Below are positions 172-50,855 of a stretch of DNA of 52,833 bases, in pieces. The position numbers and the translations under genes were made by a program. Below the pieces are notes generated by a model. That model worked only from the letters and a program-made list of their open reading frames with translations, was not told the DNA's origin and did not search any database. The stretch's first letter is position 1. Every line of letters begins with the position of its first letter. The DNA comes from Ruminococcus sp. (GTDB lineage Bacteria; Bacillota; Clostridia; Oscillospirales; Acutalibacteraceae), in assembly GCA_023667385.1 (NCBI GenBank), contig JAMPAE010000001.1:1-52833 (forward strand). The letters run 5' to 3'.

Positions 172-195
172 CGTGTACATTTCCGTGTACATTTC
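172..195 (+). promoter_or_regulatory. Tandem 12-bp repeat cgtgtacatttc x2; candidate integrase arm-type sites (left arm)
   Basis: Exact tandem duplication. The same CGTGTACA core is repeated twice with 12-bp spacing at 52753..52772, next to attR. Confidence 0.5.
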
Positions 196-1471
196 AAATC
201 TTGTCAAATTTGGTCATTGATTGCTTCTTCAATTCATCAACGATGGCAATGTAAGGCTTCATCGCTTCAAACTTTGAGTGCCCCGTCCATCGCATTATGA
301 CTTCGGCGGCAATGCCAAGTTGCAAGGCGGTGACAACGAATGTGCGCCGGGCAACGTGTGTTGTTATCAATGCCCATTTCGGCAAGACTTCTTCATGCCG
401 TTGGTTGCCGTTGAAATAAACAATCCTTGTAGGGGTGTCAATCCCGGCAGCTTTGGCAATGTCTTTCAAGTAAAGATTCATTCGCACGTTGCAAGGCACG
501 GGCAAGGCAAGGTCGTTTTTGAACTTGCATTCTTTGTATTTGTCAAGAATTGCCCTTGAATGCTTGTTCAATTCAATCTTTAAGCCGTCAACGGTCTTTT
601 GGGTCACGACATCAATGTGGTTTTCCTTGACATCGCACCGTTTCAACTTTGCGACATCCGAAAACCTTAACCCGGTGTAACAACAAAACAAGAACACATC
701 GCGGGTTTGTTCCAAATGCTTGTCGGATTCCTTGAATGTCATATCGGCAATGCGCTTGACTTCATCTTGGGTCAAATAGATTATTTCCTTTGCGTTGCCG
801 TCCGTGCCTTTCAACTTGGGTCGGAAAGTTTCGTGAACCTTGCCGGAATAATAACCGTGTGCATCCGCCCAACGCAAGAACCACCGAACAAAGGCAAGGT
901 TCTTGGCAATGGTAGTGTTCTTCAATCCCTTTTTCATCAGGAAAGCGACAAATTCTTGCATCTTTGCGTCCGACAAGGTATGAAACGAAATCAAGGGGTC
1001 AAATTCATTCAACCTTGATTTCATCGCCTTAAACTTTTGAAAGGTTGCATCCGTCCATTGGTTTTGCGCCCCCATTGTTTGTGTGAATCGGTCGTAAACC
1101 TGAAAGAACGACAATGAAACGGGGTCTTGAATGACTTCTTCAATCTTTGTGTGCCGTCCGACCATATCATTGAACAATTCCTTGATTTCGCCGGGGTCGG
1201 GAATGCGCTTTTCAAGCAATTCATATCTTGCCATTACTTCATTGATTGCGCCGCGCCATTCATCAATCTTGCGGTTGATAATCGTTGCGTCTTGAAATGA
1301 TGATTTCGCCCTTTGTTCGGCTGCATCCCATTCATCAAGGGGCAAGGACACGCCCAAAGGGAAATCAAGGGGCGTTTTGCCACGCAATGTCACACGCATT
1401 CGGATTGTGCATGAATCTTGATTTTTGCCCCTTTTGTGCGGCAAGAACTTGACCGACCAATTTATTATCAT
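194..1471 (-). CDS. int: Tyrosine recombinase / phage integrase
   Basis: 425 aa. The C-terminal catalytic signature is present: YTGLRFSD (Arg), HVARRTF (H-x-x-R) and GHSKFEAMKPY (His and the Tyr nucleophile). The gene is adjacent to attL. Confidence 0.9.
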   Translation of the reverse strand: MIINWSVKFLPHKRGKNQDSCTIRMRVTLRGKTPLDFPLGVSLPLDEWDAAEQRAKSSFQDATIINRKIDEWRGAINEVMARYELLEKRIPDPGEIKELFNDMVGRHTKIEEVIQDPVSLSFFQVYDRFTQTMGAQNQWTDATFQKFKAMKSRLNEFDPLISFHTLSDAKMQEFVAFLMKKGLKNTTIAKNLAFVRWFLRWADAHGYYSGKVHETFRPKLKGTDGNAKEIIYLTQDEVKRIADMTFKESDKHLEQTRDVFLFCCYTGLRFSDVAKLKRCDVKENHIDVVTQKTVDGLKIELNKHSRAILDKYKECKFKNDLALPVPCNVRMNLYLKDIAKAAGIDTPTRIVYFNGNQRHEEVLPKWALITTHVARRTFVVTALQLGIAAEVIMRWTGHSKFEAMKPYIAIVDELKKQSMTKFDKI

Positions 1472-2570: not shown

Positions 2571-2916
2571 GGTTCATCTTGATTTTGTAGTCGGCAATCA
2601 TCTTGTCAAATTGCGCCTTGTCAACAAGCGCAAATTCTTCATCTTTGAGTGCAGCCAATTCAAGGGCATCAAAGATTTCTTGTGGCATTTCCGAATAATA
2701 AGCCGGAACGCCGTAAAAGTCCGACACGCGGATTTCAATTTTTGACATGATTACGTTATTGCATATTTGGGAATATTCATCATCGGTCAGGCACACAAAC
2801 GGCAAGACCATCGGATTCAAGGCACGTTTGAGGTCAATGGCTTCAATCTTATCAAAGATTGATTCAGGCAAACCGGGCATCTTAAACACCGGGTCGGCAA
2901 TATTAAGTCTTATCAT
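2563..2916 (-). CDS. Hypothetical acidic protein, co-transcribed with the repressor
   Basis: 117-aa ORF with a 4-nt overlap onto the repressor stop. Confidence 0.5.
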   Translation of the reverse strand: MIRLNIADPVFKMPGLPESIFDKIEAIDLKRALNPMVLPFVCLTDDEYSQICNNVIMSKIEIRVSDFYGVPAYYSEMPQEIFDALELAALKDEEFALVDKAQFDKMIADYKIKMNHE

Positions 2917-3329
2917 TGCTTTGTTGATGTTAAATTTTCAATGATTGCAAGAAGCCGTGAATTTTGTGCAACGACATCTTGATGGGTCTTTTTGAGGTCG
3001 GCAAGGTCTTTCCGTATGCTTGCAAGGTCGGAAGTCAACTTTTGCATCGGCGTGACATCCTCAAAGGTTTCAACTTCTTCTTTTTCTTCACTGACACGTT
3101 CCACAATCTTGTCGCCGTTAATGGCATCGCCGTGTTCAACGTGTTGCCCGCCAAAGACCGTGTGTTGCTTCGGTAATAAGCCACACAATAATGCGTCTTT
3201 TGACTTGGGAATCTTGCCGCCGGATTCCCAATTTTGGATTGTTCGGGCGTGAACTCCTAATCTTTCCGCAAGTGCTTCTTGCGAAAGACCTAATTGTGAA
3301 CGAATTTCTTTTATTTCATTTGCGGTCAT
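2913..3329 (-). CDS. XRE-family HTH repressor (CI-like) with a C-terminal coiled coil
   Basis: MTANEIKEIRSQLGLSQEALAERLGVHARTIQNWESG is a canonical XRE HTH. The ORF could also start at 3356. It is divergent from the early genes. Confidence 0.8.
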   Translation of the reverse strand: MTANEIKEIRSQLGLSQEALAERLGVHARTIQNWESGGKIPKSKDALLCGLLPKQHTVFGGQHVEHGDAINGDKIVERVSEEKEEVETFEDVTPMQKLTSDLASIRKDLADLKKTHQDVVAQNSRLLAIIENLTSTKQ

Positions 3330-3408
3330 AATCAGATAGTTACAAGTTGTTAACATTCTTTAACGCGAAATAATGTGTGATTGCTATTGACAAACACGAA
3401 ATATTGTG

Positions 3409-5397: not shown

Positions 5398-7359
5398 ATG
5401 AAGAAAGTTATCTTAAAGTCTTTGACCCTTTGCAACTTCAAGGGGGAACAAAGCCGGACAACTCAATTCAACGCGGATGTCACGACAATATCCGGCGGCA
5501 ATGGTCTTGGCAAATCAAGACACTTTGACGCATTCATGTGGCTTCTTTTCGGCAAGGATGCCCAAGACCGCAAGGATTATGAGGTGCGGACATACAACGC
5601 CGATGGAACATTGTTGCATGAAGTTGAATGCAGCGTGACGGGCGTTATTGACGTTGATGGCGAAGAAATTACCATCAAGCGTGAATCCGTTGAAGAATGG
5701 GTAAAACCCCGTGGTCAGGTTGACCGCGTGTTGAAAGGCACACACAACGAATGTTGGTGGAACGAAACCCCGGTCAACGTGCGTGAATATGACAAGCGCA
5801 TCGGCGCAATCCTTGACGCATCGTTGTTCAAGATGATAACCAACCCTTTGTTTTTCGCGTCAATGCAATGGAAATTGCAACGTGCCGAATTGTTCAATCT
5901 TGCCGGAACAATCACGGATGCCGAAATTGCCGCCGAAAACCCCGATTTTCAAGTTCTTCTTGACAAGCTGACCAACAAGTCACTTGTTGACTTCAAAGCC
6001 GAAATCAAGGCAAAGAAAGAGCGTTTGAACAAGGAATTGAACGGCATTGCTCCACGCATTGACCAAACGCAAAAGTTGAAGCCGCAAAGTGAGGATTTCG
6101 CCGCCCTTGAAGCTGAAATCGCCGATGTTGATAAGCAGCTTGCCGACATTGACAAAATCTTGTCGGATAATGCCGCCCGAATCCGTGCCGAATATCAGGA
6201 ACAACAAAGCAAGTTACACGCCATCAACGAACTTGAAAGCAAACGTGCCGACCTTGTGCGCAATGCCCAACAAGCCGCCAAAGAAGCCGCGTTTGAAGCC
6301 AATGCAAGCCGCCGTGAACTTTTCAGCAATATAGAATCCAAGAAGCGTGAATTGTCGGCAATGAAGCGTTCCTTGCAGACCCTGACAAGCACTCGTGACC
6401 GTTACGCCGCCGACATTGCCGCCCTTGAAGCCGAAATCATCAAGAAGCGTCAAGAATGGCACGATGAAAACGCCAAGAAATATTCGGGCGATGATGTTTG
6501 CTTTCATTGCGGACAGCAATTGCCGGAAGCAATGAGGGCAAAAAACCTTGCCGACTTCAACAACGCCAAGAATGCCGCAAAAGCAAAGATTCAGGCGCAA
6601 GGCATTGAAATGGCGAAACGCCTTGAAACACTCAAGAAGCAACATCAAGACACAATCGCCGACATTGCCAAGCAAGAGGAAGAAAACAACGCCTTGAATG
6701 CAGAAATCACAAAGTTGCAAATGGATTATGCGAACATGGCGAATTTTGAGCCGGAAGAAGTCGTGCCGCATGAGGTCGCCGGATATGCCGAATTGACCAA
6801 GCAGATTGAAGAAGCGAAAGCCGCCCTTTCAACCGATGAACACGCCGCCGATGATACCGAACACAAGGCAAAGAAAAAGGAATTTACCGCCAAGCGTGAT
6901 GCCTTGAAAAAGCGTCTTGCCACCCGTGAAGAAATCGCACGTCTTGACAAGGAAATTGCCGACCTTAACAAGCAAGGTCAGGACATCGCTCAACAAATCG
7001 CCGACCTTGAAAAGCAAGAATATATTGCCCAAGAGTTCACACGCCGCAAGATTGATGAATGTGAAAGCCGAATCAACGGAATGTTCCACAATGTGACGTT
7101 CCGATTGTTTGACAAGACCTTTGAGGGCAATATTTATGAAACGTGCATTCCCCTTGTTGATGGTGTGCCGTTTGGAGCGGCGAACACCGCCGGACAAGTC
7201 AACGCGGGTCTTGACATCATCAACACGCTTTGCCGATTCCACGGCATTTGCGCCCCGATATTCATTGACAACCGCGAATCGGTTATCAACCTGATTCCGA
7301 CCGAAAGCCAAATTATAAACCTTGTCGTTACCAACGACAATAAACTAACAATTCAATAA
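5398..7359 (+). CDS. Rad50/SbcC-like SMC-family ATPase with a long coiled coil and a CxxC hook
   Basis: Walker A is GGNGLGKS near the N-terminus. A coiled coil of roughly 400 aa is interrupted by DDVCFHCGQQ. The C-terminal Walker B / D-loop is PIFIDNRES. Confidence 0.75.
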   Translation: MKKVILKSLTLCNFKGEQSRTTQFNADVTTISGGNGLGKSRHFDAFMWLLFGKDAQDRKDYEVRTYNADGTLLHEVECSVTGVIDVDGEEITIKRESVEEWVKPRGQVDRVLKGTHNECWWNETPVNVREYDKRIGAILDASLFKMITNPLFFASMQWKLQRAELFNLAGTITDAEIAAENPDFQVLLDKLTNKSLVDFKAEIKAKKERLNKELNGIAPRIDQTQKLKPQSEDFAALEAEIADVDKQLADIDKILSDNAARIRAEYQEQQSKLHAINELESKRADLVRNAQQAAKEAAFEANASRRELFSNIESKKRELSAMKRSLQTLTSTRDRYAADIAALEAEIIKKRQEWHDENAKKYSGDDVCFHCGQQLPEAMRAKNLADFNNAKNAAKAKIQAQGIEMAKRLETLKKQHQDTIADIAKQEEENNALNAEITKLQMDYANMANFEPEEVVPHEVAGYAELTKQIEEAKAALSTDEHAADDTEHKAKKKEFTAKRDALKKRLATREEIARLDKEIADLNKQGQDIAQQIADLEKQEYIAQEFTRRKIDECESRINGMFHNVTFRLFDKTFEGNIYETCIPLVDGVPFGAANTAGQVNAGLDIINTLCRFHGICAPIFIDNRESVINLIPTESQIINLVVTNDNKLTIQ

Positions 7360-7361
7360 CC

Positions 7362-8333
7362 ATGTCCAACGACATTCAGAAACAAAACCCGACCGGGATT
7401 GTGACAACGACCAACCCGGCAACCGTGGGGTTCAACTTCTTTGACCCCGTGCAGTTTGAAACAATGCAACGTGTGTGCAAGATGTTCGCATCATCCGACC
7501 TTGTGCCGGACACATACAAGCCGAAAACCAAACCCATCCCCACCAACGCATCGCCGGAAGCAATCGCCGCGATTCAAGCCGAAAACCGCGCCGCCGAAAA
7601 CAAGGCAATCGCCAATTGCATGATTGCCGTTGAAGTGTCAATGCGCATCGGTGCATCGCCCTTGATGGTCATGCAGAATATGGCGGTTATATACGGTCGC
7701 CCATCGTGGTCGTCAAAATTCCTTATCGCAACGGTCAATTCGTGCGGTCGCTTTGAACCCTTGCAATTCCGTTTCACAAACAAGGGCAACATCGGCAAGG
7801 TTGAATATACCGACTATGTGTGGAACGACCACACACGCCGCAAGGAAGCAACCAAAAAGACCCTTGACGGCACGAACATTGCTAACCTTGAATGTGTCGC
7901 TTATACGACCAAGAAAGGGTCAAAGGACGTGTTGGAATCCGCGCCCGTGTCAATCCGTCTTGCCATTGATGAAAGATGGTACACCAAAGACGGGTCAAAG
8001 TGGCAGACAATGCCGCGTCAAATGCTGATGTATCGCGCCGCGTCAATGTGGACAAACGCTTATGCTCCCGAACTTTCAATGGGTATGCGCACGGTTGAAG
8101 AACAACAAGACATCGTGGATGTTGAGTTTGAGGAAATCCGCGACACCCCGACCGAAAGCAAAACAAAGGAAGAAGCGGTGAAAACAACCATCGGTTTTGA
8201 TGATGCAACGCCCGCCGAACCATCAACCGCCGTCAATCAGGAAGCCGCCCCGAAAGAAACGGTTGACACCGAAACCGGGGAAGTGACCGCCGCGCCCGCC
8301 GAAGATTCTTCAAACGACAATCCCGGATTCTGA
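7362..8333 (+). CDS. recT: RecT-family single-strand annealing protein
   Basis: RecT-like core (MFASSDLVPDTYK...NCMIAVEVSMRIGASPLMVMQNMAVIYGRPSWS) with an acidic C-terminal tail. Confidence 0.75.
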   Translation: MSNDIQKQNPTGIVTTTNPATVGFNFFDPVQFETMQRVCKMFASSDLVPDTYKPKTKPIPTNASPEAIAAIQAENRAAENKAIANCMIAVEVSMRIGASPLMVMQNMAVIYGRPSWSSKFLIATVNSCGRFEPLQFRFTNKGNIGKVEYTDYVWNDHTRRKEATKKTLDGTNIANLECVAYTTKKGSKDVLESAPVSIRLAIDERWYTKDGSKWQTMPRQMLMYRAASMWTNAYAPELSMGMRTVEEQQDIVDVEFEEIRDTPTESKTKEEAVKTTIGFDDATPAEPSTAVNQEAAPKETVDTETGEVTAAPAEDSSNDNPGF

Positions 8334-9103
8334 TGGACTTGAAGATTCTTGGCAGCAGCTCAAAGGGAAATTGCTACATTTTTGACAATGGCGATGAAGC
8401 ACTTGTCCTTGAATGTGGCATCCCTTTCAAGCGGGTGCAAGAAGCGGTGAATTTCAACACCGGGCGCATTGTCGGCGCGGTCATATCGCACGAACACGGC
8501 GACCATGCAAAGGCGGTTGATAAATTCCTTGAAGCATTCATCCCCGTTTATACGTCAAGAGGAACGGCAAAGGCATTGGGAATCCTTGATAACAACCTTG
8601 TCAAAGACGTTGCCGACCATGTGATGTATGCACTTGGAAAGTTCAGAATCTTGCCTTTCCCGGTTGAACACGATGCCGCGCAACCTTTCGGTTATCTTTT
8701 GCACCATCCGGCAATGGGAACGGTCTTGTTTGCGACTGATACAATGTATTTGCGCCACCATCCTTTCGGTCTGAATGACATTATCAAATTTCAAGGTCTT
8801 AACAACATCTTGATTGAATGTAATTATCGGCACGATATAATGGAAGCGAATATCAACGCCGGGAAATTGCCGAAAGTGACCGCCAAGCGCACAATGAAAA
8901 GCCATTGCAGCTTTGCCGAATGTCGGGCGACCTTACTTGCGCAAGACCTTTCGGAAGTCAACAACATTGTCTTGATTCATCTTTCGGACGGCAATTCAAA
9001 TGCAAGCGACTTTCAACGCGATATTCAGGAAGTAACGGGCAAGACCGTGACAATCGCCGAATCAGGCATAACAATCAAAAATTTCAATAAAACACCATTC
9101 TAA
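8333..9103 (+). CDS. Metallo-beta-lactamase-fold hydrolase (likely the recombination nuclease partner)
   Basis: The HEHGDH (HxHxDH) motif is present. The start overlaps the recT stop. Confidence 0.75.
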   Translation: MDLKILGSSSKGNCYIFDNGDEALVLECGIPFKRVQEAVNFNTGRIVGAVISHEHGDHAKAVDKFLEAFIPVYTSRGTAKALGILDNNLVKDVADHVMYALGKFRILPFPVEHDAAQPFGYLLHHPAMGTVLFATDTMYLRHHPFGLNDIIKFQGLNNILIECNYRHDIMEANINAGKLPKVTAKRTMKSHCSFAECRATLLAQDLSEVNNIVLIHLSDGNSNASDFQRDIQEVTGKTVTIAESGITIKNFNKTPF

Positions 9104-9105
9104 CA

Positions 9106-9735
9106 ATGAAAAAGTATGTAGTTTTCAGCCGCGCACAAGGACGCGAAGATGGGTTGATTCTATCAGGTTTTGACCCCGAAGAAGTGCAAAGTAATTTTCT
9201 TGACTATGTTAACGACTTCAACGATGATGTTGTTGATGATGCAGACAAGGTTTCAATCTTTGACTATGAATTGGCAGTTGAAGAAGTCAAGGACGTGAAC
9301 GAAGAAATTACCGACTATCAGACAGCCCGCGCATATCTTGGTGGCAAGCCGAACTTGCAATTCAAGGTCGCACAACAAGCCGACACAATGACAACCACCG
9401 TGCCGACCCTTGAAGATGTCACACGCCTTGTTCAATCCCTGAATCCGTCACACGTTCAGGCATTGCAAGCCTTGAACGAACTGTTCACAATCGCGCAAGC
9501 ATGGAACAAAGCCGACAACTTTATGCCGGACTATTCCAACCGCAATCAAGACAAATGGTTTCCGTGGTTTGTCTATGATGCCGATGCTGCGGGCTTCGTG
9601 TCTGCGAATACGTATGGTGCGCCCTCGTATACGTATGCGAGTCTCGGTTCTCGGCTTTGCTTCAAAACCGCAAATCGCGCCCGTCAATTCGGCAAGCAAT
9701 TCATTGACCTTTGGAACAAGGTATTGATGTTTTAA
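9106..9735 (+). CDS. Small acidic protein carrying a remote DGR variable repeat (VR2) near its C-terminus
   Basis: 209 aa with no signal peptide and a very acidic N-terminal half. The C-terminal AAGFVSANTYGAPSYTYASLGSRLCF parallels the VR1 peptide AGFVAAHAYTAPTSTSAIFGSRLCY. Confidence 0.7.
   Translation: MKKYVVFSRAQGREDGLILSGFDPEEVQSNFLDYVNDFNDDVVDDADKVSIFDYELAVEEVKDVNEEITDYQTARAYLGGKPNLQFKVAQQADTMTTTVPTLEDVTRLVQSLNPSHVQALQALNELFTIAQAWNKADNFMPDYSNRNQDKWFPWFVYDADAAGFVSANTYGAPSYTYASLGSRLCFKTANRARQFGKQFIDLWNKVLMF
9586..9662 (+). repeat. DGR variable repeat 2 (remote VR)
   Basis: Gapless 77-nt alignment to TR 48635..48711. There are 14 mismatches, all at TR adenines, and none at the 55 non-A positions. 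It ends in cggttctcggctttgc, identical to the VR1 3' end. Confidence 0.75.
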
Positions 9736-9753: not shown

Positions 9754-10572
9754 ATGATACAAACAAAGTACAACGAACACCGATTTGTCACATCGGACAC
9801 GGCACAAGCAACGGGAATGTTCCTTGCAAAACGCCTTGTCAAAGAGTGGCAAGAAAGTGTCATTGACCAAGACACCGGGGAGGTCGTGACAATCAACCGT
9901 TGTGAAGTCCTGATGGATGCCGGAACGCCGATTGAAGGCAACGCCGCAATGACAATCAACTTTCACATTCAGGCGGGCGACATCACCGAATTTGAAGTGA
10001 CCGACCAATGCCGACAAGGTGTGTGGCACAACGGCGGCGGTGTTACCCCGTGGATTGTTACCGCCGATGTCAAGGACAAGAACCGCAAGTTCATCTTGTA
10101 TGCACGTGGCGTTGAACACGCCCTTGAAATCGCACGGGATTACATTGAATTGCACTTTCCCGGTCATTTCTCCTTTGTCGGGGTCAAGGGATTCAACAAT
10201 TGCATCGCAATCACCGACAATTTCAAACGTGACGGCGCGGAAGCTGACCGCACGATTGAAACGCCTGATGATACCGAAGAAACGATTGACGGCAAATTCT
10301 ACATGATAGAATTGCACATCAAGCCGATTAACAAAGGCATGGAACACGATTCATCATTCTTGGTGTTCACGTCAAACGCGGAAAAGGCAAAGCAGCTTGC
10401 CGAAAATTGGTTGTTGCAACGTGAAGCGGATGAAATTGCAAAGGGCAACTTGACCAACGAATTTGCCGGATTCACAACCACAATCAAGACCGCCACATTG
10501 CTGAATTGTTATTGCGTGATACCGCCGGACTTCACAAGGGCATATCTTGATGCAGAGAAAGAAAACGAATGA
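9754..10572 (+). CDS. Hypothetical protein
   Basis: 272-aa ORF in the early operon. No motif recognised. Confidence 0.5.
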   Translation: MIQTKYNEHRFVTSDTAQATGMFLAKRLVKEWQESVIDQDTGEVVTINRCEVLMDAGTPIEGNAAMTINFHIQAGDITEFEVTDQCRQGVWHNGGGVTPWIVTADVKDKNRKFILYARGVEHALEIARDYIELHFPGHFSFVGVKGFNNCIAITDNFKRDGAEADRTIETPDDTEETIDGKFYMIELHIKPINKGMEHDSSFLVFTSNAEKAKQLAENWLLQREADEIAKGNLTNEFAGFTTTIKTATLLNCYCVIPPDFTRAYLDAEKENE

Positions 10573-10617
10573 CCAACCCGCCCCCGGTGATTGCGCCGGG
10601 GGCATAACCGAACAACA

Positions 10618-11322
10618 ATGAAAGACAAGACATATTATTTTCCGCACGATTATGGGGCAAGGAACGACCCCAAGTTGCAAGGAATCCTTGTTGAGCATGG
10701 AGCGGCGGGCATCGGTGCTTTTTGGTGCATCATTGAGCAGCTTTATGAACAAGGGGGTGCAATGCCCTTGAAGTCGTGCAAAAGCATTGCATTTGCTTTG
10801 CATATTGATTGCAAGGTAGTGGAAAGCATCGTGAATGACTTTGGCTTGTTTGGCAATGATGGCGAAACCTTTTGGTCTGAATCCGTCAACAAGCGAATGG
10901 CAAAGCGCACGGCGATAACCGAAAAGCGCAAAGCCGCCGCCGCAAGCCGTTGGCAATCCTTGCCCGATATGCAAATGCAATCCGAAAGCATTGCAAATGT
11001 AGTGCAACCCGAATCCAAAATAAAAGAAAAGAAAGAAAAAGAAACATCATCTAACGATGATGGTAATGGGGCAAAACCGCAATCACGGTTTGTGCCGCCG
11101 ACCCTTGAACAAGTGAAAGCATATATCCTTGAAAAAGGTTATTCAATGGACGGCGAAAGGTTCATTGACTTCTACGAAAGCAAGGGTTGGATGGTGGGCA
11201 AAAACAAGATGAAAGATTGGAAAGCCGCCGTGCGCAATTGGGCAAGGGAAGAAAGCCAACGCCCCACCGCCCGGAAGCCTCAAACAAGCAAATCACGAAA
11301 CGTCAATGATGAATGGCAATGA
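10618..11322 (+). CDS. Replication initiation protein (DUF4373 / Lin1244-like N-terminal domain plus a DnaD-like C-terminal domain)
   Basis: YYFPHDYGARNDPKLQGILVEHGAAGIGAFWCIIEQLYE lies at the N-terminus and FIDFYESKGWMVGKNKMKDWKAAVRNWA at the C-terminus. The track start at 10591 is a TTG. Confidence 0.65.
   Translation: MKDKTYYFPHDYGARNDPKLQGILVEHGAAGIGAFWCIIEQLYEQGGAMPLKSCKSIAFALHIDCKVVESIVNDFGLFGNDGETFWSESVNKRMAKRTAITEKRKAAAASRWQSLPDMQMQSESIANVVQPESKIKEKKEKETSSNDDGNGAKPQSRFVPPTLEQVKAYILEKGYSMDGERFIDFYESKGWMVGKNKMKDWKAAVRNWAREESQRPTARKPQTSKSRNVNDEWQ
10776..11043. repeat. Ori-like block inside the replication gene: TGCA-motif iterons followed by an A-rich tract
   Basis: gtgcaaaagcattgcatttgctttgcatattgattgcaagg is at 10776..10816. 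atgcaaatgcaat is at 10969..10981. gcattgcaaatgtagtgcaa is at 10988..11007 and is an exact 20-mer copy of 2097..2116. The tract aaaataaaagaaaagaaagaaaaagaaa follows. Confidence 0.45.
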
Positions 11323-15513: not shown

Positions 15514-15788
15514 CAAACGGACAATATAACACCATCAAGCGCATTATCAACCACGAAATGTCCGAAGATGATGCGGTAATCTTGGGCAAGCGCATAATGG
15601 TTGCGTCAAGGGTTGCATCCGCACTTTATACCGATTCAACCAAACACGTGGGTGGTTTGGTTTATGCGGATGAAAGTGCAAAGGAAGAACGGTGCAAAAG
15701 AATCGCCGAAACCGCCCTTGACATCGCCGATGAAATCATCTTTCAGGCGGTCATGCGAAACCAAAAGAATGCTTTGAACAATGAATGA
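15510..15788 (+). CDS. Hypothetical protein
   Basis: 92-aa ORF coupled to both neighbours by overlaps. Confidence 0.4.
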   Translation: MTNGQYNTIKRIINHEMSEDDAVILGKRIMVASRVASALYTDSTKHVGGLVYADESAKEERCKRIAETALDIADEIIFQAVMRNQKNALNNE

Positions 15789-16434
15789 GATTGAAACATT
15801 CGGCACAATAAGCCTTGTCAATGCTGATTGCCTTGACGTTATGGCGGGGTTGCCTGACAACGTCTTTGACTTGGCGATTGTTGACCCGCCTTATGGCATC
15901 GGCATTGACGGGCAAAAGGCTTGCACTTGCAAGAATCCGAAGCACAACCGAAAGCATCACGAAACAAAGGGATGGGATAAATTACCCCCCCCCATTTACT
16001 TTGCTGAATTGCAACGTGTTAGCAAAAATCAAATTATATGGGGCGCAAATTACTTTGTTCCGATGCTTGACAAAGGCACAAAAGGGTGGATTGTTTGGTT
16101 TAAGGGTCAAACCGGGCTTACAATGTCGGATTGTGAATTGGCTTATTCTTCATTTGATTGCCCGACACGTCTTGTCACAATCAACCGATGTGAACTTGCA
16201 AAGCAACAAACAATCCACCCGACCGAAAAGCCGAAATCGCTTTATGGATGGTTGCTCAATCACTATGCAAAGCCAGGCGATAAAATCCTTGACACCCATT
16301 TGGGGTCGGGTTCAATTTGCCTTGCAGCGCATGACCTTAACTTTGAAATGTTGGGAATCGAACTTGATGCCGGGTATTATCAAGCCGCGAAACAACGTCT
16401 TTTATATCATCAACAACAATTAAAACTTTTCTGA
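15781..16434 (+). CDS. DNA methyltransferase (N6-adenine or N4-cytosine, DPPY class)
   Basis: The catalytic motif is IVDPPYGIG near the N-terminus. The C-terminal AdoMet motif is ILDTHLGSGS. Confidence 0.8.
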   Translation: MNEIETFGTISLVNADCLDVMAGLPDNVFDLAIVDPPYGIGIDGQKACTCKNPKHNRKHHETKGWDKLPPPIYFAELQRVSKNQIIWGANYFVPMLDKGTKGWIVWFKGQTGLTMSDCELAYSSFDCPTRLVTINRCELAKQQTIHPTEKPKSLYGWLLNHYAKPGDKILDTHLGSGSICLAAHDLNFEMLGIELDAGYYQAAKQRLLYHQQQLKLF

Positions 16435-46467: not shown

Positions 46468-46860
46468 ATGGAATTAGCAAAAATATTGCCCGATGGGTCG
46501 GTGGACATTCGCTTTTGTTCGCCGATACTTGGCGAAAAAATGGCGCAATTGAGAGAAGCCGGGTTTCTTGACTATGTGCCAACGGAACAACCGAAAGCGG
46601 ACACCGGGTTTGTCGCGGTTGATTCCTTTGAAGTTGTTGACGGTCGCATTGTTCAATCGTGGTCAACCAAGATTGACCCAACGGTTGTGCAATCACGCAT
46701 CGCCGAACTTAAAGAACAACTTGAAGAATCAGACTACAAGGTTACAAAGTGTTATGAAGCATCTTTGGTGGGCGAATCCTTGCCGTATGACATTGCGGAA
46801 TTGCACCGGGAAAGGCAATCAATCCGTGATGAAATAAACCGTCTTGAAGCGATGATTTGA
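46468..46860 (+). CDS. Hypothetical tail fibre-associated protein
   Basis: 130 aa, acidic, with a C-terminal coiled coil. Confidence 0.4.
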   Translation: MELAKILPDGSVDIRFCSPILGEKMAQLREAGFLDYVPTEQPKADTGFVAVDSFEVVDGRIVQSWSTKIDPTVVQSRIAELKEQLEESDYKVTKCYEASLVGESLPYDIAELHRERQSIRDEINRLEAMI

Positions 46861-46942: not shown

Positions 46943-47209
46943 ATGGACACAACAAGGTCGGGCGAACAAGTTTCCGCCCAAATCGGCAAAATGGGTGTTG
47001 TTGCCCTGACTGATTCCGGCTTTTCATTGCCGGATGGTCAGTGCTTCAACATCAAGAATGACGGCATCGCCCCGGTCACGCTATCGGTGCGCCTTGCCGG
47101 AATGTCGGATTTCATTGAAACGCAATTTGATTGCGGGTGGAATCCTGAAATCGTGAAAGAAATCGCGCCAACTTCGTTGGTTAATATTAACTTAAAATGG
47201 GGCTTTTAA
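46943..47209 (+). CDS. Hypothetical small protein immediately upstream of the DGR target
   Basis: 88-aa ORF that ends 1 nt before the ATG at 47211. Confidence 0.4.
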   Translation: MDTTRSGEQVSAQIGKMGVVALTDSGFSLPDGQCFNIKNDGIAPVTLSVRLAGMSDFIETQFDCGWNPEIVKEIAPTSLVNINLKWGF

Positions 47210-47210
47210 T

Positions 47211-48527
47211 ATGGGTCTTATGATTGGAGTGGGCAACACAAAACCCACATTCGCTTATGACTATTATTACGGCATTGAATGGGATAAGACCGTTTCAAAT
47301 CCTATTCCAACCCGTGTCGGCAAAGATGAACTTCACAAGTCTTTGCCCGTGCAGTCACTTATGCGCCGTTGCACTTTGAAAGATGATGGCGCGGTCAATT
47401 ACTATCTTCACGCCAACGATTCATCAAAGCGTGACAACGGAGCAGCCGCCGACCTGACGGGCGCACACGGTCAATTTATGGTTGAATTGCCGGATGCTTA
47501 TATGCGCTTTGAGATGGACGGCAACAAGAATCGTGCGCTTATGAGCGACCGACCCTTGCCCGGATTTATCAAGTGGCGCAAAGACTACGTTTCAGCCGAT
47601 GAAGCGTGTGTGCAGCGTTCCACAACCACCCTTTGCGCCGTTGTCAACAACGACCCCGATTTCAGGGGTGGCGGCAATCAAACCGCTTATGATGATACCG
47701 ACCACACTTTGTTGGGTCGCCCGGCAACGTCAATCAGCTTGACAAACTTTCGTGCATACGCCCGCAAGCGTGGGTCGGTGTCATGGAATTGCAATCTTTA
47801 TCAGACACACCGCAAGTTGTGGTGGTTCTTTGCGATTGAATATTGCAATTTCAATTCGCAAGCCGCGTTCAATGCCGAATTGACCGCTGACGGATTCCAT
47901 CAAGGTGGACTTGGCGCGGGTGTCACAACCCTTAACGGCACAAAGTGGAACACTTGGAACGGTTACAATCCTTTCATTCCTTGCGGTCACACCCTTTCGT
48001 TGGGCAATCACACGGGAACGGTGGATTACACCTTACCAAGCGGATATGACACAACAACCCTTGTCGTTGCCGTGCCGTCTTATCGCGGCGTGACAAATCC
48101 TTTTGGTCATATATGGAAATGGACTGATGGTTGCCTTTGCAACATTCAATCCGATGCCGCCGGGGGATTATCCGAATTTTACGTTTGTGACGACCCGACA
48201 CACTTTGCATCAACCATCGGCGCGGAATATCAGTTGCGCGGCAACTTGCCCCGAAAAGAGGGATATGTAAAAGCCTTGATTCTTGGCGAACACGGCGAAA
48301 TAATGCCCCTTGAAGTCGGTGCAAGCACAACCACCTATTTCTGCGACTACTTTTATACTAACATACCCGCAAGTGGTGAAGCCATACGCGGCGTTTTGTT
48401 CGGCGGTTATGCGTATTATGGTGCGTGTGCAGGCTTCGTGGCTGCGCATGCGTATACTGCGCCCACGTCTACGTCTGCGATTTTCGGTTCTCGGCTTTGC
48501 TATTACCCAATCGAAACCGCCGCGTAA
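47211..48527 (+). CDS. DGR target protein (receptor-binding candidate, C-terminal C-type-lectin/FGE-like variable domain)
   Basis: 438 aa. The C-terminus GVLFGGYAYYGACAGFVAAHAYTAPTSTSAIFGSRLCYY is encoded by VR1. Confidence 0.85.
   Translation: MGLMIGVGNTKPTFAYDYYYGIEWDKTVSNPIPTRVGKDELHKSLPVQSLMRRCTLKDDGAVNYYLHANDSSKRDNGAAADLTGAHGQFMVELPDAYMRFEMDGNKNRALMSDRPLPGFIKWRKDYVSADEACVQRSTTTLCAVVNNDPDFRGGGNQTAYDDTDHTLLGRPATSISLTNFRAYARKRGSVSWNCNLYQTHRKLWWFFAIEYCNFNSQAAFNAELTADGFHQGGLGAGVTTLNGTKWNTWNGYNPFIPCGHTLSLGNHTGTVDYTLPSGYDTTTLVVAVPSYRGVTNPFGHIWKWTDGCLCNIQSDAAGGLSEFYVCDDPTHFASTIGAEYQLRGNLPRKEGYVKALILGEHGEIMPLEVGASTTTYFCDYFYTNIPASGEAIRGVLFGGYAYYGACAGFVAAHAYTAPTSTSAIFGSRLCYYPIETAA
48387..48501 (+). 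repeat. DGR variable repeat 1 (VR1)
   Basis: Gapless 115-nt alignment to TR 48596..48710. There are 20 mismatches. Nineteen fall at the 29 TR adenines and one is T48650 to G. Confidence 0.9.
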
Positions 48528-48595: not shown

Positions 48596-48710
48596 CGCGG
48601 CGTTTTGTTCAGCGGTAATGCGAATAATGGTGCGAATGCAGGCTTCGTGTATGCGAATACGAATAATGCGCCCACGAATACGAATGCGAATATCGGTTCT
48701 CAGCTATGCT
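48596..48710 (+). repeat. DGR template repeat (TR)
   Basis: Non-coding copy of the VR. In the VR frame it contains 10 AAT codons (RGVLFSGNANNGANAGFVYANTNNAPTNTNANIGSQLC). It lies between the target gene and the RT gene. Confidence 0.9.
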
Positions 48711-48856
48711 TGTAAAAATATAGTTGCATCACCTGAAACCTTGCCACAAAAACATCCCATTCCGGGGGTGTATGAGTGGGGCAACCCACGGCAAAAAATA
48801 AATTATGTTGAACGACTTTGGTAGGGCTGCCGAAAAAGTCTATTATTCAAGCAAAC

Positions 48857-50071
48857 ATGAAGCGTTTGAACAACCTTTTTGAAAAGGTCATAAGCCTTGA
48901 CAATTTGCGCCTTGCCGATGAAAAGGCAAGGAAAGGCAAGTTGCGGTCTTATGGTGTCCGACTTCACGACAAGAACCGTGAAGCCAACATTCTTGCGCTG
49001 CATGAACAATTAAAGAACGGAACATTCAAAACATCGCCTTATCACGTTTTCACAATCTACGAACCCAAAGAAAGGTTAATTTATCGTTTGCCGTACTTTC
49101 CCGACCGCATATTGCATCACGCGATTATGAACGTGCTTGAACCCATTTGGGTGTCTATATTCACAAAGGACACTTATTCTTGCATCAAGAATCGCGGGAT
49201 TCATGCGTGTGCCAAATCGGTGCGCCGTGCATTGCGAGAGGATAAGGACGGCACACGGTATTGCCTGAAAATTGATGTCCGCAAGTTTTATCCGTCAATC
49301 CGTCACGACATCTTGAAAGCCATCATCCGGCGTAAAATCAAAGATGCCCGGTTGCTTGCGCTTCTTGATGAAATCATTGATTCTGTCAACAACACGACCA
49401 CACAATCAACGAAACCCAAGCGCAAAAGAAGCAAAGGCAGACCGATGGGGTCGCGTTACTTGTGCATGAGCAAGCAATCGCACAAGATGGGCGAAGCTGA
49501 TGCAGATGAAGCCAACGAGCCGGAAGAAGCGGAAGAACCCGAAACAAGGGGCGTTCCAATCGGCAATTACCTATCACAATACTTTGCCAACCTTGTCTTG
49601 GCTTACTTTGACCATTGGTTGAAAGAAGTGATGGGCGTTAAGTATTATTGGCGATATGCCGATGATATTGTGATTCTTGCCGCCGACAAACAATTCTTGC
49701 ACGACCTATTGCACGAAATCCGCAAATATTTTGCGACCCTTGATTTGCACGTCAAACGCAATTATCAGGTGTTCCCGGTTGAAAGCCGTGGGATTGACTT
49801 CTTGGGTTATGTATTTTACCACACCCACACACGCTTGCGCAAGAGCATAAAGCAACGGTTGTGCCGCCGGGTGGCAAGCCTTAACAAGCGGAAAGAGCAG
49901 ATGCCCAAAGAAGCGTATCGCCAACAAATATGCAGTTGGTGGGGTTGGTGCAAATACTGCAATTCAATAAATCTTTTCAACAAACTAAAAGCAACGATGC
50001 CTTATGAAATCAGCTTTAATCGCCCCAAATGCGCATTACGACATGACGCATGGGCAACCCAAACCGATTGA
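48857..50071 (+). CDS. DGR reverse transcriptase
   Basis: The RT motifs include YADD at 49655..49666, and IGNYLSQYFAN has the DGR-typical SQ signature. The track start at 48818 is a TTG, so the ATG at 48857 (MKRLNNLFEKV) is preferred. Confidence 0.9.
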   Translation: MKRLNNLFEKVISLDNLRLADEKARKGKLRSYGVRLHDKNREANILALHEQLKNGTFKTSPYHVFTIYEPKERLIYRLPYFPDRILHHAIMNVLEPIWVSIFTKDTYSCIKNRGIHACAKSVRRALREDKDGTRYCLKIDVRKFYPSIRHDILKAIIRRKIKDARLLALLDEIIDSVNNTTTQSTKPKRKRSKGRPMGSRYLCMSKQSHKMGEADADEANEPEEAEEPETRGVPIGNYLSQYFANLVLAYFDHWLKEVMGVKYYWRYADDIVILAADKQFLHDLLHEIRKYFATLDLHVKRNYQVFPVESRGIDFLGYVFYHTHTRLRKSIKQRLCRRVASLNKRKEQMPKEAYRQQICSWWGWCKYCNSINLFNKLKATMPYEISFNRPKCALRHDAWATQTD

Positions 50072-50414
50072 AAAGGACAATGATGGTTCAACCATCGTGC
50101 GCCTTGACATCAACCCCGAAATGGGTATTCCCGGCGGCGACATTGCCACCGCCAAGTCAGCCGATGCCGACCCCGTGCAAATCGGTTGGTCGTGCTTTGA
50201 AGTCAGGACGTTCAACGCCCCGACCAAAGCCAACTTAAAAAAGGCGATAATCCGCGCCATTGTGGATGAAACCGCCGAATTTGACCTTGTGAACTCCTAC
50301 AACAAGCACGTTATGGGAATCAAGGTTGATGAAGAAGCCGTGCAGCGTTACAAGGAATTTTTGGCATTCACCGAAGAACTTGACGCGGCATTGGTTGAAT
50401 CGCTCAAAAACTAA
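50004..50414 (+). CDS. Hypothetical acidic protein
   Basis: 136-aa ORF that overlaps the RT 3' end by 68 nt. The true start is uncertain. Confidence 0.4.
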   Translation: MKSALIAPNAHYDMTHGQPKPIEKDNDGSTIVRLDINPEMGIPGGDIATAKSADADPVQIGWSCFEVRTFNAPTKANLKKAIIRAIVDETAEFDLVNSYNKHVMGIKVDEEAVQRYKEFLAFTEELDAALVESLKN

Positions 50415-50438: not shown

Positions 50439-50855
50439 ATGGCAAGGTTTGGCGACCTCGGAATTGAATCCGGGGCAATCATCGGAAAAGGTATTGAAAT
50501 TGAGGAATTGTTCGGCAAGCGAATCTTGATTGAGAAAACAAAGATTTCAAAGTCAAAATTCACGGGCAAGAACAATTCCGGGTTAAGGCTGCAAATGCAA
50601 GTCGTTCTTGCGTCATTCAACGAAACGCCGGATGAAGATGGCGACTTCTATGTGAAGAAGCCGGACGGCACACCCGATGGCGAAAGGCGATGTTGTTTCA
50701 CCGGGTCGGACATTCTTATTGAGGGTGTCCAAGCAGCCGAAGAAAAGATTTCAAGCATCAACGCGGAACGTGCCGCCAATGGCGAAAAGCCGCTTGAACT
50801 TTATCCGATTGACACAACCATTGTCAAGGTCGGCAAGTGTTTCAATTTCACTTGA
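50439..50855 (+). CDS. Hypothetical protein
   Basis: 138-aa ORF upstream of the lysis cassette. Confidence 0.45.
   Translation: MARFGDLGIESGAIIGKGIEIEELFGKRILIEKTKISKSKFTGKNNSGLRLQMQVVLASFNETPDEDGDFYVKKPDGTPDGERRCCFTGSDILIEGVQAAEEKISSINAERAANGEKPLELYPIDTTIVKVGKCFNFT

Follow-up and report, generated by a model that had tools for sequence, protein, structure and literature searches.

Phage DGRs are usually read as tropism switches that act on tail proteins. The stretch of DNA analysed here (52,833 nucleotides, hereafter the window) carries a single DGR beside a tail-protein gene, and the original prediction, made from the letters of the window, had assigned this DGR a second, remote variable repeat (VR) in a small gene that is separated from the TR by 39 kb and does not belong to the structural module. 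The locus raises the questions of whether such a gene is genuinely a DGR target, whether it is still being rewritten, and what its product would do in the infected cell.

Remote second targets, and the idea that they serve counter-defence, are already published, and the window is a new lineage-level case. Benler et al. 2021 (PMC8008677) described a second, 'non-structural' DGR target of Quimbyvirus ('ORF 80/84'), and in four induced prophage species of the human gut Dahlman et al. 2025 (PMC12629997) found a second, distal VR close to counter-defence genes, without protein-family or structural analysis of the second target; an intracellular or counter-defence role for distal second VRs was proposed in both studies. 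Prophages of this kind have also been engineered (Dahlman et al. 2025). A distant target has also been reported in Bacuni phages (Hedzet et al. 2021, PMC8143477), and a global survey was unable to detect remote targets (Roux et al. 2021, PMC8144416).

Here, we recompute the alignment between the remote repeat and its TR, follow the repeat through related phages, delineate the protein family that carries it, and predict the structure of its product. We consider it highly probable that the repeat, VR2, is a genuine, in-use second target of the single DGR of a temperate Bacteroidales phage, with a putative role for its product as an intracellular binder.

The DGR cassette and its tail target

The DGR cassette of the window comprises the following features:

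48596..48711, forward strand: TR, of which 48635..48711 templates VR2 and 48596..48710 templates VR1
48694..48709, forward strand: TR counterpart of the VR 3' end, IMH*-like, CGGTTCTCAGCTATGC
48387..48501, forward strand: VR1, in the 3' end of the tail-protein gene 47211..48527
48818..50071, forward strand: DGR reverse transcriptase (RT), Pfam RVT_1, with a probable ATG start at 48857

The gene that contains VR1 matches phrog_5302 'tail protein' with an E-value of 1e-119, and the only mismatch between VR1 and TR that does not fall on a TR adenine is a T to G change at TR position 48650. The RT open reading frame is intact and carries the motifs of the DGR clade (IGNYLSQ at aa 248 and YADD at aa 280); its best match among solved structures is 8ub7, in which the chain is named only 'Reverse transcriptase' (E 6e-48).

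Searches of Pfam, NCBIfam and PDB sequences recognised no Avd near the cassette. The four open reading frames beside it (46468..46860, 46943..47209, 50004..50414 and 50439..50855) had no Pfam match, the first three of these had no NCBIfam match, and 50004..50414 had no meaningful match among PDB sequences. An open reading frame overlapping the RT 3' end, as 50004..50414 does, occupies the same position in phage Versailles, which makes it an Avd candidate by position only.

A small gene in the recombination and replication block

The remote target is made up of these features:

9106..9735, forward strand: VR2 target gene, 209 aa by translation of the open reading frame, matching phrog_11581 (E 1.2e-18)
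Residues 1-209 of its product: an acidic N-terminal domain (1-62), a linker, and a conserved C-terminal domain (~113-209) that contains the VR
9586..9662, forward strand: VR2, the remote variable repeat, an ungapped match to TR 48635..48711 with mismatches at TR adenines only
9592..9644, forward strand: probable mutable core of VR2, codons 163-180, in which relatives vary at the A columns only
9592..9601, forward strand: A-free homology block GGCTTCGTGT, which opens the mutable core
9645..9660, forward strand: IMH-like 3' end of VR2, CGGTTCTCGGCTTTGC, identical to the VR1 end and with two differences from the TR

The gene call of the original prediction was upheld, including the acidic N-terminal part and the lack of a membrane segment or signal-like N-terminus. 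The start codon of 9106..9735 lies 3 nt past the stop of the preceding MBL gene. Residues 1-100 of the product contain 21 D/E against 9 K/R (pI 4.1), no TM segment was found along the protein (the maximum 19-residue Kyte-Doolittle mean is 0.44), and its N-terminus is not signal-like. On the upstream side are genes for an SMC-like ATPase, RecT (7362..8333) and an MBL-fold protein (8333..9103), and downstream follow a Lin1244_N protein, a DnaC-like loader, Ant, a C5 methyltransferase, an exonuclease and an N6/N4 methyltransferase, the two methyltransferase genes lying 4-6 kb 3' of the VR2 gene. The window also encodes an integrase (194..1471) and an HTH repressor (2913..3356), indicating that the phage is temperate.

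Across 64 related viral loci, taken with 10-kb flanks, conservation of neighbours was seen for MBL, the SMC-like ATPase, RecT, a replisome organizer and DnaC, and in 35-38 of the 64 the VR2-gene homologue is the next gene after MBL, in the same orientation. In these MBL-adjacent loci, the distance downstream is 1.7-2.5 kb to the replication genes and 4-8 kb to the methyltransferases. The gene had been described as belonging to an early region and looking non-structural, and its place in a recombination and replication block bears this out. No partner gene is kept across all lineages among the 64 loci and no obvious effector was seen; the neighbours in other lineages differ.

VR2 departs from the TR at adenines only

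Recomputing the alignment of VR2 with TR 48635..48711 reproduced the predicted figures exactly: over 77 ungapped nucleotides there are 14 mismatches, which fall at 14 of the 22 TR adenines and at none of the 55 other positions. The probability that 14 random mismatches would all land on the 22 A of 77 positions is ~4e-10. When both strands of the window were scanned for TR-like runs lacking any non-A mismatch, only the TR itself, the 77-nt VR2, and VR1 emerged. Upstream of 9586 the match between VR2 and TR fails at non-A positions, again as predicted, so that VR2 corresponds to approximately the 3' two-thirds of the 115-nt TR.

The 16-nt sequence CGGTTCTCGGCTTTGC was correctly predicted to close both repeats, at 48485..48500 in VR1 and at 9645..9660 in VR2, while the TR reads CGGTTCTCAGCTATGC at this point. 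Comparison with relatives suggests that five of the 14 VR2 differences are fixed rather than currently mutable, namely those at 9586, 9587 and 9591 on the 5' edge and those at 9653 and 9657 in the 3' end. The latter two, by which the VR end is distinguished from the TR, are retained unchanged in 8/8 related phage contigs. The difference at 9591 is common to all related contigs whose TR has A at that site, and those at 9586 and 9587 are common to the relatives whose alignment extends that far. As the three 5'-edge and two 3'-end A differences are fixed among five close relatives, the mutable core probably spans ~9592..9644.

This core contains 17 TR-adenine positions, nine of which are substituted in the window genome. 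It lies in frame near the 3' end of the open reading frame, with 24 codons between the end of VR2 and the stop, and its eleven randomised codons (six AAT, one TAT, three ACG and one ATC, all in frame) permit ~1e10 protein variants, none of which contains a stop codon.

A downstream hairpin or cruciform is a target recognition element of the BPP-1 type and is not universal. We found no DNA hairpin 3' of VR2, as folding of 9640..9720 gave -6.9 kcal/mol (z = +0.67 versus shuffles), and DNA folding downstream of VR1 was likewise no better than that of shuffles (z = -0.75).

TR-to-VR2 transfer in related phages

To follow VR2 beyond the window we used eight IMG/VR contigs, each of which has a related RT as well as a homologue of the small gene. 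In every one, VR2 matches the TR of its own contig over 75-78 nt with 9-14 mismatches, all at A. Moreover, where the TRs of these contigs differ from one another at non-A positions, the cognate VR2 shows the same differences (ACGCCGTCG versus ACGGCTACG versus TCGGCGGCG is an example), a pattern that requires repeated TR-to-VR2 copying in each lineage. Together with Versailles and LoVEphage, VR2 follows the TR of its own genome in 10 other genomes.

Variation among close relatives shows the same adenine dependence. The original prediction had proposed scoring per-site variation in related phages against TR adenines, and in five phages that are 96.5-99% identical outside the VR we found that 17/23 TR-A columns vary, as against 1/55 non-A columns and 28/543 columns outside the VR (Fisher p = 3e-11 and 6e-16, respectively). 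At the protein level, variation within 90%-identity clusters centres on ~aa 164-180, where as many as 9 different residues occur at one site, and the remainder of the protein is almost invariant. In 126 family representatives hypervariation occupies residues 156-180 (most columns have ~3-3.9 bits), and conservation extends over the positions adjacent to the VR and the greater part of the domain core (~122-155 and 181-204).

Judged by these sequence comparisons, A-specific transfer from TR to VR2 recurs in many lineages and is confined to the core. For the phage of the window itself, the nine substituted core adenines and the behaviour of its relatives point to VR2 being a live target rather than a relic. 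The prediction of a remote second VR belonging to the DGR of the window is thus strongly supported, by the DGR-type RT, by the tracking of TR in 10 genomes, and by hypervariation at TR adenines, and the gene that contains it appears to be a non-tail gene.

A large protein family with a C-terminal variable domain

A search of 5.8 billion proteins yielded 4208 matches to the VR2 protein, and a search of 50%-identity representatives yielded 980 clusters at that identity with E-values up to 1e-3. Of the best 150 of these 980 clusters, nearly all are 110-310 aa in length, and the conserved unit is the last ~100 residues, which lie at the very C-terminus in nearly all of the 150 representatives. The hosts of prophage copies are Bacteroidales (Muribaculaceae, Prevotella, Bacteroides pyogenes, Parabacteroides and Alistipes). 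The VR2 protein itself had no match in Pfam, NCBIfam or PADLOC, the last indicating no defence or anti-defence family. Pfam searches with 126 family members returned nothing relevant and no CLec-type family, those with the ten longest representatives revealed no informative N-terminal fusions, and blastn of the region against GenBank phages gave no match.

Proteins of two known phages, LoVEphage and Versailles, align to the family profile on both sides of the VR, with E-values of 7.5e-24 and 2.2e-19. By contrast, the tail target of the window reached only 17 bits against the same profile, within the VR. We considered a common origin of the VR2 protein and the domain of the tail target and rejected it: the similarity is confined to the 32-49 residues templated by the TR, and thus reflects the shared template rather than domain descent. 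Profile alignment places the VR2 protein in one large family that includes the remote non-structural DGR target of Quimbyvirus/LoVEphage. These two names presumably denote one phage, as each is ~95% identical to the B. dorei CP011531.1 prophage.

We then turned to structure prediction. In the full-length model (pLDDT 67.5), the N-terminal beta-beta-alpha-beta domain (residues 1-62) is confident and the linker poorly modelled. Foldseek found no match to this model in the PDB; in BFVD, the N-terminal domain alone resembles many uncharacterised phage proteins of 50-70 aa, neither search pointing to a function. Residues 95-209, modelled on a diverse alignment, were predicted with higher confidence (pLDDT 89.9, pTM 0.81): two helices lead through a long loop into a beta-hairpin, after which come the VR strand and loop, then a short strand, and finally two C-terminal helices. 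In this predicted structure the variable residues map to a beta-strand and loop of the ~100-aa C-terminal domain.

To our knowledge, all solved DGR variable proteins display the VR on a C-type lectin fold, and the original prediction had expected a truncated version of it here. This expectation was not supported: Foldseek comparison of the 95-209 model with the PDB gave no match at E < 1 and no C-type lectin, the Pfam searches with 126 members gave no CLec family, and the A1 profile had no match among PDB sequences at E-values up to 10. CLec domains have been reported for the Quimbyvirus targets (Benler et al. 2021, PMC8008677), and the modelled VR-bearing domain could conceivably be a strongly reduced CLec derivative. 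A bolder reading, to which we give a low but appreciable probability, is that the ~100-aa C-terminal domain is a new, non-C-type-lectin DGR scaffold, and that the family amounts to a widespread intracellular library of antibody-like binders directed against polymorphic host defence proteins or other cytoplasmic proteins. If so, the DGRs of gut phages would routinely diversify post-entry host range besides adsorption.

Homologues in LoVEphage and Versailles

The homologue in LoVEphage (OY731444.1) is a 194-aa protein encoded by 15651..16235 and shares the neighbourhood of the second Quimbyvirus target described by Benler et al. 2021 (PMC8008677). Its VR lies near the C-terminus and spans 112 nt, with 11/11 mismatches at TR adenines, on the strand opposite the TR. 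As in the window protein, the family profile matches both the helices that precede the VR and the G-S-R-L...FGxQFxxLW helix that follows it. The two loci are also alike in that the gene lies far from the RT cassette, outside the structural module and with DNA methyltransferases nearby. They differ in lineage, LoVEphage having a 71-kb genome of the Quimby type and the window 52.8 kb with RecT, MBL and DnaC-like genes. The immediate neighbours differ as well, the LoVEphage gene lying in a block with four methyltransferases, a Lar-like protein and a tRNA ligase, whereas that of the window adjoins recombination and replication genes. VR2 of the window is on the same strand as its TR and is only 77 nt long, and the window protein lacks a segment of ~26 aa that precedes the shared part in LoVEphage. 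Finally, the RT is a single intact open reading frame in the window but is frameshifted in Quimbyvirus according to Benler et al. 2021 (PMC8008677). The shortened VR, the same-strand geometry, the intact single-ORF RT and the recombination and replication neighbourhood characterise this new lineage-level case.

Closer in layout is Versailles (ON453897.1), a cultured phage of B. caecimuris, whose homologue (10181..10762) is annotated 'tail protein'. The VR of this small gene extends over 107 nt with 14/14 mismatches at TR adenines. Versailles shares with the window, in this order, an SbcC-like ATPase, a RecT-like protein, an MBL hydrolase, the small VR gene, a replisome organizer and DnaC, and in both the far right end is where the RT and TR are found. 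The small proteins are nevertheless only ~30% identical, the Versailles VR covers ~107 nt of the ~115-nt match between TR and VR1 as against 77 nt in the window, and in Versailles the MBL gene is separated from the small gene by two genes that the window lacks there, for a NinB/Orf homologue and a hypothetical protein. The term 'DGR' did not occur in the retrieved literature that mentions phage Versailles.

Against the prototypical BPP-1 system (Mtd/TR/bRT/Avd), the window agrees in the A-specific mutagenesis of a VR from a TR, an RT with IGxxxSQ and YxDD motifs, the position of the VR near the 3' end of the open reading frame, the use of AAY codons, and the difference between IMH and IMH*. 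BPP-1, however, has one adjacent target, a C-type-lectin receptor-binding protein of the tail fibre, whereas the second target of the window is a non-tail gene 39 kb away; moreover, the predicted VR domain of the window has no CLec match, there is no GC-rich hairpin after VR2, and no Avd was recognised.

Proposed mechanism and function

In the mechanism that we propose, the RT would copy TR RNA into cDNA, misincorporating opposite adenines, and the cDNA would replace the homologous stretch in VR1 of the tail gene and, 39 kb off, in VR2. Addressing would use the VR-specific 16-nt 3' end together with the A-free block GGCTTCGTGT on the 5' side of VR2, and such use of a 5' homology block and a shared 3' end would cause only the 3' two-thirds of the TR to be installed. 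By analogy with the BPP-1 paradigm, the 3' end may act as an IMH that directs cDNA priming or integration, and the 5' junction may be resolved through short homology.

The small soluble product would be a variable cytoplasmic ligand binder that is produced along with the early recombination and replication genes and works in the infected or lysogenic cell. Its most likely binding partner would be a polymorphic protein of the host or of a rival phage, its role may lie in counter-defence or host takeover, and its diversification would pre-adapt the phage population to different hosts. We favour a cytoplasmic variable binder engaged in phage-host or phage-phage conflict on the basis of gene context, absent export signals and the parallel in the literature. 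Consistent with a non-virion role are the lack of a TM segment, the conserved position after MBL, the methyltransferases downstream, the neighbourhood in LoVEphage, and the restriction of tail similarity to the TR-templated segment. We counted against our overall explanation that no Avd was recognised and that no hairpin, C-type lectin match or PADLOC match was found.

One alternative is that the small protein is a virion-associated or extracellular adhesin, serving in decoration or accessory receptor binding and merely encoded outside the structural module, which would make VR2 an ordinary tropism target. Receptor-binding proteins are the classical phage DGR targets (Roux et al. 2021, PMC8144416), and the conserved two-domain layout could represent an anchor and a binder. 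The 'tail protein' annotation in Versailles and a weak match of the window protein to phrog_5302 'tail' (E 0.002) also speak for an adhesin, but this 'tail' similarity spans residues 157-188 only, which is the TR-templated stretch. Furthermore, the gene lies inside the recombination and replication block in most lineages, and its LoVEphage homologue lies in a methyltransferase-rich block on the strand opposite the RT and tail genes. The protein is small and acidic, with neither a signal-like N-terminus nor a TM segment, and Foldseek searches of the PDB and BFVD found no structural-protein fold. We therefore regard an adhesin as improbable.

Equally improbable, in our estimate, is that the protein serves the lysogen as a diversified sensor or decoy for proteins of superinfecting phages (superinfection exclusion), in the manner of the DGR-diversified putative antigen sensors of bacteria. 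The phage carries the integrase (194..1471) and HTH repressor (2913..3356) of a temperate phage, DGR-diversified sensors of bacterial conflict systems have been described (PMC10907252), and Benler et al. 2021 place the homologue in a 'defense- and counterdefense-related' neighbourhood. However, no effector domain or partner gene is conserved beside the homologues across lineages, PADLOC gave no match, and the gene belongs to the rightward early block and points away from the repressor and integrase, an orientation that would argue against expression in the lysogen.

That VR2 of the window genome is an inactive relic, once homed and resembling the TR through retained ancestry, is very improbable: although the 5' third of the TR match, still present in Versailles and LoVEphage, is lost and neither an Avd nor a downstream hairpin was recognised, there are zero non-A differences over 77 nt beside diverged flanks, the same shortened VR2 varies actively among close relatives and co-varies with each TR at non-A positions in the eight contigs, and the RT open reading frame is intact with its catalytic motifs.

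The cytoplasmic binder that we favour would have consequences beyond this phage. The window adds an independent lineage with a small non-tail DGR target, and one large conserved family joins its protein to the published Quimbyvirus/LoVEphage case. This family is hypervariable wherever examined, and its predicted VR fold is not recognisably a C-type lectin; the size of the family and a VR scaffold without detectable C-type lectin match are the features that may surprise specialists. Were the protein to act intracellularly, DGRs would have a hand in post-entry host range, a real extension of known biology. The system is tractable, as family members occur in two cultured phages, LoVEphage and Versailles, the host of the latter (B. 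caecimuris) being a member of the OMM12 consortium.

Remote and adjacent copies of the template repeat

Comparison of VR1, the variable repeat in the tail-protein gene (window 48387..48501), with the template repeat (TR, 48596..48711) revealed a single non-adenine difference, a T to G change at window 48441 relative to TR 48650. By contrast, VR2, the remote variable repeat (9586..9662), carries no non-adenine differences from the TR over the shared 77 nt, and VR2 therefore reproduces this stretch more cleanly than the adjacent VR1 does.

The database gene call for the VR2-gene product (P0001) is 193 aa long (92% coverage). However, the N-terminus that begins at the ATG at 9106 (MKKY…) is kept in homologues of the 9106..9735 product, indicating that the 209-aa open reading frame is the better gene model.

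Genes surrounding the VR2 gene

Two genes in the vicinity of VR2 are described here:

5398..7359, SMC/SbcC-like ATPase that heads the recombination block
9754..10572, 272-aa gene directly downstream of the VR2 gene, phrog_35807

The ATPase also matches PADLOC models of LmuB, from Lamassu (E 1.6e-14), a match that probably stems from similarity between the ATPase domains and not from membership in a defence system. The 272-aa gene is present in only 2 of the 64 related viral loci with VR2-gene homologues, and in approximately 25 of these loci its place is taken by a 149-aa and a 246-aa gene; its position is a variable slot adjoining the hypervariable VR2 gene.

Homologues in other phages

In Bacteroides phage Versailles, the homologue (ON453897.1 10181..10762; 7893..8474 of stretch L145) lies in the early region and is labelled 'tail protein' in GenBank. 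This gene is a second DGR target, and it probably received its label because its TR-templated segment resembles tail targets. The term 'DGR' is absent from the two papers we found to mention phage Versailles. LoVEphage (OY731444.1) carries its VR2 homologue on the strand opposite to the TR and reverse transcriptase (RT), and thus remote homing in the VR2-protein family is orientation-independent.

The reverse transcriptase and an overlapping reading frame

Both the window (50004..50414) and Versailles (7233..7661 of stretch L146) have an ORF of 136–142 aa that overlaps the RT gene at its 3' end, and the window ORF matches phrog_11557, which has no assigned function. As sequence-based searches for Avd across the DGR cassette found none, we consider this ORF a candidate accessory protein of the DGR.

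The RT itself (48818..50071) contains an insertion of ~55 residues between conserved blocks (residues ~190–245), K/R-rich at first and D/E-rich thereafter, that includes …TKPKRKRSKGRP…EADADEANEPEEAEEPE…. Alignments to sequences of solved structures leave a coverage gap at the insertion, the best stretches stopping at 184–185 and others starting at 242–244.
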